DNA of 64,000 bases, taken from NCBI RefSeq assembly GCF_056746865.1, contig NZ_CM163382.1; one strand, 5' to 3'. The notes below the pieces were generated by a model. The model was not told the origin of the DNA. It saw only the letters and a program-made list of their open reading frames with translations, and ran no database searches. The position numbers and the translations under genes are program-made. How positions within the stretch are numbered: position 1 is the first letter of the stretch; each line of letters opens with the position of its first letter. Shown piece by piece: positions 13,819 through 58,699 of this stretch.

Positions 13819-14937
13819 TTATTCTCCCCGTGAGTCAGCGTTATCTTTCTTTTGCTGACGACCCAGTTCACGCACCGCCATCACGCTGACACCGGCAACC
13901 AACCCAACCACACCGCCGAGCAAACCAATAGCGCCTGCAGAGACGTTGCCGCCCTCTTTAGCGTTAACATCCGGTTTCTGTGAACGCGGAGTTTGATTTT
14001 CGACGTTGGCAAGCTGATGGATGCCTTTATGGAAGCCGATACCTTCTTCGTTACAGCCATAGCACGGGTGACCAATCGCCACCGGCCACACACCGCCAAC
14101 ATCGCAGAATTGCAGCGTTGAGCAGTTGCCGTAAGTTTCTGGCCCTTTACAGCCGAGGTGGTACAGGCACCAGCCTTCGCGGTGGCCTTCATCACCGAAC
14201 TCTTTGGCAAAACGACCAGCATCGAAGTGCGGGCGACGTTCGCAGTGTTCGTGAATCAGACGGCCATAGGCGAAGGTCGGACGGTTTTTGTCATCCAGTT
14301 TCGGCGGTTTGCCGTAAGTGATGATGTGCGCAACGGTCGCGAGGAAGTTGTGCGGGTTCGGCGGGCAGCCCGGAATATTGATAACGGTTTTGCCTGGCAG
14401 AACTTCTTGCAGGCTGACTGCGCCAGTTGGGTTAACTCCAGCTGCGGCAACACCGCCCCACGCAGAGCAGGAACCGATAGCGATAATGGCTGCTGCGCCT
14501 TCCGCCGCTTTGCGGATGTGATCCACAATCGGCTCACCGGCAACCATGCAATAAATACCGTTATCTTTTAATGGGATGGAACCATCCACCACTAACACAT
14601 ACTGCCCTTTGTACTTCTCGAGAGCGTTATGTTTGTTCTCTTCGACCTGATGACCGAAGGCGGCGGAAAGCACTTCGTGATACTCCAGAGAGATAGTCTC
14701 CAGTACGAGGTTTTCTACCGTTGGATGCGTTGCACGAAGCAGAGATTCCGTACAACCGGTGCACTCCTGCGCGCCAATCCAGATAACTGGCGGACGCTGC
14801 GGGTTAGTAACCGATTCGGCCATCTCTGCAGCGGCTTTGCTACTTAACCCCATGGTGGCGGCTAATGCTGCACAAAGCTTCATGAAATCACGACGGTTAA
14901 TGCCGTGAGAATGGATGAGGGTGTTATCTCCAGTCAT
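13819..14937 (-). CDS. hybO: [NiFe] hydrogenase 2 small subunit (Tat signal)
   Basis: 372 aa; RRDFMK twin-arginine motif; Fe-S cysteine ligands. Confidence 0.9.
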
Positions 14938-15125
14938 TTATAGTTATTCCGTTGCGAAGACCTGGCATATATTTTGCCTCAATCGCAAAATCAATAATGC
15001 GATCGATGCGCCATTTACCACACATTTATTATGGTTATCGATATCATGATACTGCGGCGGGGCGCTAAAACGAAGGGAAGAAGCATTAGTGTAATTAATT
15101 AAAGCAAGATAATACGTATGTTTGA

Positions 15126-41229: not shown

Positions 41230-41266
41230 CTATGAGAGCCGTTAAAACGACTCTCATAGATTTTAC
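41230..41266 (+). terminator. Rho-independent terminator after qseC
   Basis: ctatgagag...ctctcatag hairpin then attttact. Confidence 0.6.
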
Positions 41267-41598
41267 TAATAGCAAAATATAAACCGTCCCCAAAAAAGCC
41301 ACCAACCACAAACCAGACAAATACCGAGCGAGAATACATATACCCAAAACTCGAACATTTCCCGCATAAAGAGTTTTCTTAAGATAAGAATAATAAGTGG
41401 CGTAAGAAGAAAAAATGCTGCAATCATTGCTTGCAATATACGATCTTCGCCTGAAACGGAAGGTATACTGCAAATATTTCCTCCCGACTCAAGCATCCAG
41501 TCATACTTATTGAAAGCAAAAAAAGAATCTATTAACCAATAAGTAAGCATTATATATAGCAATGCTTCAAATATTGTTTTAATTTTCTGCTTTAACAT
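41266..41598 (-). CDS. ygiZ: Small inner membrane protein
   Basis: 110 aa hydrophobic ORF in AT-rich context. Confidence 0.75.
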   Translation of the reverse strand: MLKQKIKTIFEALLYIMLTYWLIDSFFAFNKYDWMLESGGNICSIPSVSGEDRILQAMIAAFFLLTPLIILILRKLFMREMFEFWVYVFSLGICLVCGWWLFWGRFIFCY

Positions 41599-41925
41599 AT
41601 ATCAGTACGCTCATAAAAATCCATTTATAATTATCAACATGACACGTTGATACTTTCATCTTTTACTTATTCAAAGCCATATTTTCAATCCCCAAAAAAA
41701 CCGAACCAAACGTGTAAATTATTCCGGTGCGAGTAAGAATTGTAAGAATTATGAGGAATGGCTATCAGTATTGTCATTTTCAGAAAATATTTATCCTGCA
41801 TCGGTGAGTCAGAGTAAGATCAGACTTTTGCTAAATTCGCAAAAGACTTTGCACATTTTGCTAATTTCACCGTACCGCTCTGTGACGTACTATAGTCGGC
41901 AAACGTCTCACCTTGAGGTTAAAAA

Positions 41926-42507
41926 ATGAGCAACATCCTGATTATCAACGGCGCGAAAAAATTCGCCCACTCCAATGGTCAACTGAACGACACCCTGACC
42001 GAAGTCGCGGATGGCACACTGCGCGACCTTGGGCATGATGTCCGCATCGTTCGCGCCGACAGCGACTACGATGTCAAAGCGGAAGTACAAAACTTTCTCT
42101 GGGCTGATGTGGTGATCTGGCAGATGCCAGGCTGGTGGATGGGCGCGCCGTGGACAGTGAAAAAATACATTGATGATGTATTCACCGAAGGTCACGGGAC
42201 GCTGTATGCCAGCGATGGTCGTACCCGCAAAGATCCGTCGAAAAAATACGGTTCCGGCGGCCTGGTACAGGGCAAAAAATATATGCTTTCTCTGACCTGG
42301 AACGCACCAATGGAAGCCTTCACCGAAAAAGATCAGTTCTTCCACGGCGTTGGCGTTGACGGTGTGTATCTGCCGTTCCATAAAGCAAACCAATTCCTCG
42401 GTATGGAACCGCTGCCGACATTTATCGCTAATGACGTGATAAAAATGCCTGATGTTCCCCGCTATACTGAAGAATATCGCAAGCATCTTGTGGAAATTTT
42501 TGGTTAA
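41926..42507 (+). CDS. mdaB: NADPH:quinone oxidoreductase (flavodoxin-like)
   Basis: 193 aa. Confidence 0.95.
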   Translation: MSNILIINGAKKFAHSNGQLNDTLTEVADGTLRDLGHDVRIVRADSDYDVKAEVQNFLWADVVIWQMPGWWMGAPWTVKKYIDDVFTEGHGTLYASDGRTRKDPSKKYGSGGLVQGKKYMLSLTWNAPMEAFTEKDQFFHGVGVDGVYLPFHKANQFLGMEPLPTFIANDVIKMPDVPRYTEEYRKHLVEIFG

Positions 42508-42537: not shown

Positions 42538-42852
42538 ATGCTTACCGTAATCGCAGAAATCCGTACTCGTCCTGGTCAACATCACCGTCAGGCGGTATTG
42601 GATCAGTTTGCTAAAATCGTTCCAACCGTACTGAAAGAAGAAGGTTGCCACGGCTATGCGCCAATGGTGGATTGCGCAGCTGGCGTGAGTTTCCAGTCTA
42701 TGGCACCGGATTCTATCGTGATGATTGAGCAGTGGGAAAGCATCGCGCATCTTGAAGCGCATCTGCAAACCCCGCACATGAAGGCGTATAGCGAAGCCGT
42801 AAAAGGTGACGTGCTGGAGATGAATATCCGTATTCTGCAGCCAGGGATTTAA
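42538..42852 (+). CDS. ygiN: Quinol monooxygenase (ABM domain)
   Basis: 104 aa. Confidence 0.9.
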   Translation: MLTVIAEIRTRPGQHHRQAVLDQFAKIVPTVLKEEGCHGYAPMVDCAAGVSFQSMAPDSIVMIEQWESIAHLEAHLQTPHMKAYSEAVKGDVLEMNIRILQPGI

Positions 42853-47306: not shown

Positions 47307-47510
47307 TGTTAATGTCCTGGCACTAATAGTGAATTAAATGTGAATTTCAGCGACGTTTGACTGCCGTTTGAGCAGTCATGTGTTAAATTGAGGCACATTA
47401 ACGCCCTATGGCACGTAACGCCAACCTTTTGCGGTAGCGGCTTCTGCTAGAATCCGCAATAATTTTACAGTTTGATCGCGCTAAATACTGCTTCACCACA
47501 AGGAATGCAA

Positions 47511-58230: not shown

Positions 58231-58431
58231 TCAGTGTTCTAATTCAAGTTCTCTGGTTTGCATCATCTGTTGGCAATACCAGGCATAACGTGCGCAAAAC
58301 CAGGTTCTATGTTCTTCATCCATGTTACCAGTAACGGCCAGAATATCGACCGGGCGACCTTCTGCGTGCATTCTGGCAAAACTACGCGCCAGGAAATCGA
58401 AATTATTTAAAGAATTAAGACTATGATCCAT
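58231..58431 (-). CDS. glgS: Surface-composition regulator GlgS
   Basis: 66 aa from ATG at 58431 ([16 protein letters not shown]...). Confidence 0.9.
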
Positions 58432-58699
58432 AAGCACATCCTCCGGTTATCGCATACCTTTTAAGGCCATATGCTTTTTCTGATTTCAGTATTCCCCAAT
58501 CAGTGTAGTGCCTTTAAACATAACGTGCGTAAATATATTGTCCCCGATCACACTTTTTAGTGAAAAATAAAAAACCATATTAAAAGACTTTCTCTTCCAG
58601 AACTTCTCTAACATGTGTTATTATTAACAAAGATAAATGTAAGCAAGGAAACTATCCTAAAGTAAATATTGCGTCACTAAATGGACATTGGAGTGACAT

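Follow-up and report, generated by a model that had tools for sequence, protein, structure and literature searches.

Two adjacent candidate activator sites upstream of mdaB-ygiN in Escherichia coli: a MarA/SoxS/Rob marbox beside a palindrome of the CrgA/YafC kind

Described promoters closest to that of mdaB

Two kinds of described promoter come close to the one that lies upstream of mdaB. In the class II promoters of the MarA/SoxS/Rob activators, such as micF (soxbox at -41.5), inaA and fumC, a forward box overlaps the -35 element with its centre near -41.5, which is how the published rules of orientation and position define the class; a Salmonella survey adds that the -35 of such promoters matches the consensus at no more than three of six positions. 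The mdaB promoter resembles them in its asymmetric 20-bp box, whose GCAC and YYAAA-type elements lie 9 bp from each other, in the forward placement of this box over a weak -35, about 42 bp upstream of the start (a predicted one at mdaB), and in its target, a redox or drug detoxification gene. It departs from them in the second recognition element, GCTAAT instead of GCTAAA, in the conservation of its box, far above what a degenerate marbox needs, and in a second, palindromic site alongside.

The other relative is the crgA-mdaB pair of Neisseria meningitidis. According to the CrgA structure paper, CrgA activates the divergently transcribed mdaB, and this CrgA-dependent expression is induced by alpha-methylene-gamma-butyrolactone. 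The CrgA footprint spans 63 bp and holds two adjacent T-N11-A sites, and the same paper sets out the textbook LysR-type layout, namely a palindrome with T-N11-A at -65 plus a site over the -35. It also names E. coli YafC as a close CrgA homologue, with 59% identity. E. coli has in common with Neisseria the target gene, the orthologous regulator, a nearly identical distal operator (GATTATTTC-N7-GCAAAAGTG in Neisseria, GATTATTGC-N7-GCAAAAGAC in enterics), a TTTGCAC in the proximal site and a palindrome beside the regulator's own start codon. In contrast to Neisseria, the E. coli regulator gene is not adjacent to mdaB and divergent from it but about 2.9 Mb away (yafC at 229967-230881, mdaB at 3172530), the two sites are 10 bp closer to each other, and the proximal site is a full marbox.

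Two further known sites are useful for comparison. The tolC marbox (GCACGTAACGCCAAC, 47411-47425, between nudF and tolC) is a MarA ChIP-seq site (Sharma et al. 2017) and served as an internal positive control; unlike the mdaB marbox, it belongs to the training set of the matrix used below and has no palindrome alongside. The class I soxbox of zwf (forward, at -61.5) is similar in position and orientation to a stretch of the mdaB promoter that we call site A (41827-41846, forward, about -63.5). Unlike the zwf soxbox, site A is without the conserved A of GCA and is a palindrome with a free spacer.

A palindrome and a marbox between ygiZ and mdaB

The stretch of DNA analysed here, 64,000 nucleotides long and referred to as the window, has the E. 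coli gene order qseB, qseC, ygiZ (minus strand), mdaB, ygiN and parE, and its features of interest are collected in Table 1. The 401 bases around the site are 100% identical to many complete genomes. An 83-bp core, identical in K-12, occurs in 5425 of the 5426 complete genomes of E. coli, with an identity of at least 99% in 4768. The genes mdaB and ygiN are probably in one operon, and the pairing of mdaB with an ABM-domain gene is kept in distant loci. For comparison we used 80 enterobacterial mdaB loci, to which a few more distant loci were added later; two loci that have different genes upstream of mdaB (L014, L073) contain no LysR gene at that place.

Several other traits of this neighbourhood can be mentioned. 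The intergenic region between ygiZ and mdaB measures 327 bp and is identical to that of K-12 MG1655 except for a 9-bp tandem duplication, GTAAGAATT GTAAGAATT (41733-41750), where MG1655 carries the 9 bp once. A 13-nt inverted repeat, AATTATCAACATG / CACGTTGATACTT (41629-41655), with arms 1 nt apart and 85% complementary, immediately precedes ygiZ, which is on the minus strand. In most Enterobacteriaceae (loci L002-L080) the qseC stop codon lies directly 5' of the mdaB control region, and ygiZ (41266-41598) is an insertion that, among the loci compared, appears in the window and in E. whittamii (L001) alone. At least one genome labelled as E. coli (L002) is without ygiZ and has a different palindrome spacer, AATATTC.

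Table 1. Positions of the features in and upstream of mdaB-ygiN, in window coordinates
Feature	Position	Strand	Remarks
Direct-repeat copy 1, TTTTGCTAAATTC	41826-41838	+	Left arm TTTTGC plus 7-nt spacer of the upstream palindrome
Direct-repeat copy 2, TTTTGCTAATTTC	41856-41868	+	Recognition element 2 of the marbox
Palindrome TTTTGC-N7-GCAAAA	41826-41844	.	Centre 41835, about -65; T-N11-A from T41829 to A41841
Extended palindrome arms AGACTTTTGC / GCAAAAGACT	41822-41848
Marbox TTTGCACATTTTGCTAATTT, 20 bp	41848-41867	+	Recognition element 1 GCAC, 41851-54; recognition element 2 GCTAAT, 41860-65; centre about -42.5
Predicted weak -35, TTCACC	41866-41871	+	4/6 matches, 16-nt spacer; overlapped by the marbox; inferred from the -10
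Predicted -10, TACTAT	41888-41893	+	Conserved 49-nt offset
mdaB Shine-Dalgarno, GAGG	41915-41918	+	TGAGG conserved in the alignment
mdaB, NADPH:quinone oxidoreductase	41926-42507	+
ygiN, putative quinol monooxygenase (ABM domain)	42538-42852	+	Starts 30 nt past mdaB

The region that carries the sites reads agacTTTTGCTAAATTCgcaaaagacttTGCACATTTTGCTAATTTCacc. Here the sequence-only reading had pointed out a direct repeat of tttgctaaatt and tttgctaattt, which lie at 41827-41837 and 41857-41867, 30 bp apart from start to start. The repeat is well founded: the two 11-mers extend to 13-mers with 12 of 13 positions identical, and since a 13-nt repeat as good (at most one mismatch, within 60 bp) turned up in no more than 5 of 500 shuffles that preserve the dinucleotides of the 327-bp intergenic region, it is more than chance. 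In its extended form it is restricted to most Escherichia sequences. What that reading did not contain is that copy 1 forms part of a 27-bp palindrome that is nearly perfect, AGACTTTTGCTAA-A-TTCGCAAAAGACT (41822-41848). The direct repeat exists because TTTTGC is common to the left half-site of this palindrome and to the proximal site; it is a shared half-site, and not a pair of marboxes. Of the Mar/Sox control proposed in that reading, the part that concerns the second copy is supported, by matrix score, orientation, position and the papers on the mar regulon, whereas the direct repeat itself is not accounted for by Mar/Sox, the first copy being half of a LysR-type palindrome.

A comparison of 84 mdaB promoters separates the two parts of copy 1. 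The arms of the palindrome are conserved, the left one as ATTATTGC (ACTTTTGC in Escherichia and Salmonella) and the right one as GCAAAAGAC, while the 7-nt spacer is free; the TTGC of copy 1 is kept and its TAAATTC spacer varies outside Escherichia. The TAAATT of copy 1 is thus non-conserved spacer, and the conserved unit is the palindrome TTGC-N7-GCAA. This inverted repeat carries the T-N11-A of LysR recognition sites, and given the predicted start, it lies at about -65 with a second TGC-N7-GC site overlapping the -35, which is the two-site arrangement of LysR-type promoters. Moreover, loci whose proximal site is not a marbox still have the palindrome, with an unchanged distance to the -10; these are Entomohabitans (L023), Shimwellia (L081), L082/L083/L085 and L086. 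The link between palindrome and mdaB is not universal, as the box is missing from the mdaB promoters of Acinetobacter-like loci (L084, L087, L088) and of a Neisseriaceae bacterium (L095), where there is no adjacent LysR gene either.

In those Acinetobacter-like loci another palindrome is conserved upstream of mdaB, of the type TTGATCAATA / TTATCAATAA and followed by TTTTGC, which suggests a different regulator of mdaB in that lineage.

Exact copies of TTTTGC-N7-GCAAAA are expected 0.02 times per 64-kb window. The window holds two, and none of 300 shuffles reached two or more. The only copy besides that of mdaB (TTTTGCCTCAATCGCAAAA, 14972-14990) lies between genes and precedes by 35 bp the start codon of a minus-strand 372-aa ORF (13819-14937) that we take to be hybO. 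Judging from its sequence and place, it may be a second YafC-type operator, ahead of hydrogenase 2.

For the proximal site, the sequence-only reading had described a gcac...gctaa arrangement overlapping the second copy and resembling the MarA/SoxS/Rob box (GCAC at 41851-41854, GCTAA at 41860-41864), had called the match imperfect and had proposed a scan with a MarA/SoxS matrix. The match is indeed imperfect, with two mismatches to the 19-nt consensus AYnGCACnnWnnRYYAAAY and one to gcannwwntgnnaaa. Because the degenerate consensus at two or fewer mismatches is not enriched in the 64-kb window (16 found, 16.8 expected), a position weight matrix was built instead from the 32 chromosomal MarA ChIP-seq sites in Table 1 of Sharma et al. 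2017. On this matrix GCACATTTTGCTAAT scores 14.0 bits and ranks second of about 128,000 window positions (p=6.6e-6 per position; expected 0.85 times per 64 kb and 0.01 times per intergenic region). It outscores 19 of the 32 real MarA sites, scored leave-one-out, and the tolC marbox of the same window (13.1 bits, rank 6). With a hit of this rank, the objection that no matrix match rises above background fails, and the reading of the second copy as part of a forward marbox is supported.

The top match of the window to the MarA matrix is GCACGTTATGTTTAA (58514-58528, minus strand, 14.4 bits). The gene glgS (58231-58437, likewise on the minus strand) begins about 80 bp downstream of it, and the match is forward relative to glgS; Table S2 of PMC12052159 lists this sequence for glgS.

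The proximal site is also unusually well preserved. The block 41839-41862 has an identity of at least 97.5% in 81 Enterobacteriaceae sequences, above that of the adjacent mdaB coding sequence, and in this alignment no variation is seen at the 'n' positions of the marbox either. The marbox score goes down to 8.2 bits in Klebsiella and Enterobacter, because recognition element 2 reads GCTCAT there. Kluyvera (L043, L057, L067, L077) has a perfect 9-bp tandem, TTTGCACAT TTTGCACAT, at the proximal site, which creates an exact T-N11-A (TGCACATTTTGCA) and lowers the marbox score to 6.6 bits; this would fit a LysR-type reading of the site in that genus.

The promoter itself was predicted from comparative data, since a simple promoter scan of the mdaB strand gave no match. 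In 82 of 84 orthologous mdaB promoters the G of GCAAAAG is followed, at a distance of exactly 49 nt, by a TAnnnT hexamer, which drifts in sequence (TAAAAT, TAGAAT, TATCAT, TACTAT and others) in the manner expected of a real -10. The predicted start is then near 41899-41901, equivalent to NC_000913.3 3172503-3172505. The -35 given in Table 1 has an alternative in TTTCAC, with 2/6 matches and a 17-nt spacer. The marbox lies on the mdaB strand and over the -35, and its centre at 41857.5 corresponds to about -42.5 from the predicted start, as in class II promoters. A class II MarA/SoxS/Rob marbox, already known in outline, is therefore the assignment that the sequence supports for the proximal site.

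Published data agree with Mar/Ram control of mdaB in several respects. The gene is cited, after Martin and Rosner 2002, as a member of the mar regulon; vanillin raises MdaB 8.4-fold, in a source that calls MdaB MarA-controlled; overexpression of marA changes mdaB by a log2 fold change of 1.8; and in a Salmonella ramA mutant mdaB is 3.2-fold lower, along with nfsA, acrAB, tolC and yhbW. In addition, a computational screen from 2025 (PMC12052159, Table S2) counts GCACATTTTGCTAAT as well as GCTAAATTCGCAAAA among the candidate marboxes of mdaB. The starts that it pairs with these two boxes correspond to window positions 41819 and 41867 and misfit the conserved -10 and the predicted start at about 41900, which counts against our model. 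Furthermore, mdaB is absent from the 33 MarA ChIP-seq peaks in ETEC (Sharma et al. 2017), a list that by its authors' account recovers only about 20% of known targets, and from the high-quality EcoCyc MarA targets used in PMC12052159. The mdaB marbox is real and essentially known already, without high-grade evidence in the sources consulted.

YafC as the candidate factor at the palindrome

The comparison with Neisseria points to a regulator for the palindrome. In reverse complement, the CrgA footprint contains GATTATTTC-ATTTGAC-GCAAAAGTG, again with a 7-nt spacer, and the enteric consensus GATTATTGC-N7-GCAAAAGAC agrees with it at 15 of 18 positions with identical spacing; only 10 of 200,000 shuffled versions of the footprint agree as well. 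Site 1 of the CrgA footprint includes TTTGCAC too, 10 bp further off than in enterics. This Neisseria site scores 2.7 bits on the MarA matrix and is not a marbox.

The same palindrome also occurs at the gene for the proposed regulator. A perfect TTTTGC-AACAGGA-GCAAAA abuts the ATG of yafC in K-12 (NC_000913.3, 230882-230900), and the palindrome is found at the yafC start codon with another spacer in Citrobacter and Dickeya, and with one mismatch in Lelliottia; at the 5' end of Salmonella yafC it is absent. From its sequence and position, the copy beside the yafC ATG resembles an operator through which YafC would regulate its own gene. YafC is 84-90% identical across the enterobacterial homologues listed.

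One distant contig (L086) joins the two situations. Next to an mdaB whose product is 81% identical to that of E. coli, it carries a divergent LysR gene of 303 residues, preceded by an aldo-keto reductase gene, which is the dkgB-yafC arrangement of E. coli. The LysR protein scores 507 bits against NCBIfam NF040888, the YafC equivalog (cutoff 470), and is 75% identical to K-12 YafC. The intergenic region contains GATTATTGC-TGTATGA-GCAAAAG at the usual distance from a -10 in GTATTAT. A paper on albicidin resistance mentions, in the legend of a figure, a LysR gene next to genes like mdaB and ygiN in Yersinia, Serratia, Cronobacter and Erwinia. The divergent regulator-mdaB pairs of Neisseria and L086 suggest that in the core Enterobacteriaceae the marbox could have been added later, to a promoter that was already under LysR control.

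Except where the CrgA paper remarks on the homology, the open literature gave no paper linking yafC and mdaB in E. coli, and we found no earlier description of the sequence upstream of E. coli mdaB as an operator of the CrgA/YafC kind. YafC ChIP-exo data exist (Gao 2018), and mdaB may already be recorded there as a high-throughput YafC target. It counts against a role for YafC that its ChIP-seq was not modellable by BoltzNet. The quinone-related LysR regulator YhaJ was considered as the palindrome factor and set aside, as no paper that co-mentions YhaJ and mdaB was found.

Hayashi et al., in 1996, reportedly saw MdaB of E. coli induced by the electrophile 2-methylene-4-butyrolactone. In Neisseria the compound also induces the CrgA-dependent mdaB, and control by YafC would account for the induction in E. 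coli.

Readings of the promoter and what they imply

Taken as a whole, the data lead us to regard dual control of mdaB-ygiN as probable, with YafC at the distal palindrome and MarA/SoxS/Rob at the proximal marbox. In this model, 41822-41871 would be the activator-binding part of a sigma-70 promoter, with two adjacent sites 21 bp apart. The proximal class II marbox would overlap the weak -35, and the activator bound there would make contacts of the micF kind, with sigma region 4 and with the alpha C-terminal domain. The distal palindrome would be the binding site of YafC, which in E. coli is orthologous to the CrgA of Neisseria, with activation of mdaB as the outcome, and the marbox probably doubles as the promoter-proximal LysR activation site. 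Two activator families sharing the marbox would account for a conservation far above that of usual marboxes. In this scheme we infer the binding of YafC, the transcription start and the interplay of the two activators. It is also tempting to go further and propose, although we hold this only tentatively, that YafC is the CrgA counterpart that activates mdaB-ygiN directly from the -65 palindrome, that an ancestral proximal LysR site was reshaped into a class II marbox in the core Enterobacteriaceae, and that the regulon may include hybO.

Could the promoter instead carry two tandem marboxes and receive no LysR input? Site B, the proximal marbox, would then act as class II and site A as a second marbox 21 bp upstream, as in zwf, whose soxbox is forward at -61.5. 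Sites A and B do have the GC-N7-GC spacing in common, and site A passes gcannwwntgnnaaa at two or fewer mismatches, is in Table S2 of PMC12052159 and reaches 9.4 bits in the forward and 9.6 bits in the reverse direction in E. coli; its median over 81 species, read forward, is 9.6 bits. However, a 9.4-bit match is expected 0.2 times per intergenic region, and at the third marbox position, where 26 of 32 ChIP sites have A, no more than 5 of the 84 site A sequences do. The invariant ATTATTGC and GCAAAAGAC exceed what a degenerate marbox needs, while the AC positions of recognition element 1 vary freely. Site A is moreover kept where site B is not a marbox, it matches the Neisseria CrgA footprint, and its palindrome recurs at the yafC start codon. 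We consider the tandem arrangement unlikely. The opposite simplification would make 41822-41868 a recognition plus activation site of YafC and nothing else, with a coincidental likeness to a marbox and indirect Mar/Ram effects. Part of the marbox-like sequence may indeed predate marbox function, given the TTTGCAC in Neisseria CrgA site 1; the proximal site, too, is laid out as TGC-N7-GC, its invariance at marbox 'n' positions suggests a further constraint, and mdaB is neither a MarA ChIP-seq peak nor in the high-quality EcoCyc list. Yet the 14.0 bits include an invariant G at matrix position 10 that is missing in Neisseria, the orientation and position are those of class II, and mdaB rises on marA overexpression, moves together with nfsA, acrAB, tolC and yhbW in the ramA mutant and is cited within the mar regulon, so that control by a LysR protein only appears improbable to us.

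An explanation that involves no regulatory protein was weighed as well, in which the repeat is an incidental AT-rich one, an RNA hairpin or a terminator left over downstream of qseC. The region is AT-rich (35% GC), the qseC stop codon is just 5' of the palindrome in most genera, and the palindrome can form a 7-bp stem. The fold is nevertheless weak (-8.3 kcal/mol, z = -1.2), with 25 of 200 shuffles as good, and there is neither a terminator-like site nor an Rfam match. In E. coli, ygiZ intervenes between qseC and the element; the element stays at a fixed distance from the mdaB -10, and its conservation is above that of coding sequence. We give this explanation almost no weight, and return to dual control by YafC and MarA/SoxS/Rob.

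The marbox confirms no more than an accepted Mar control. The palindrome TTTTGC-N7-GCAAAA provides a concrete candidate operator, and with it a target, for the uncharacterised conserved regulator YafC, and it connects YafC to the well-studied CrgA-mdaB pair of Neisseria. The genes concerned, mdaB and ygiN, are a quinone redox-cycling pair tied to drug tolerance. If the further, tentative proposal on YafC is true, a LysR oligomer and monomers of MarA, SoxS or Rob would share, or compete for, the same 20 bp. Under dual control, the mdaB promoter would be a clean case in which activators of two unrelated families are overlaid on a single promoter.
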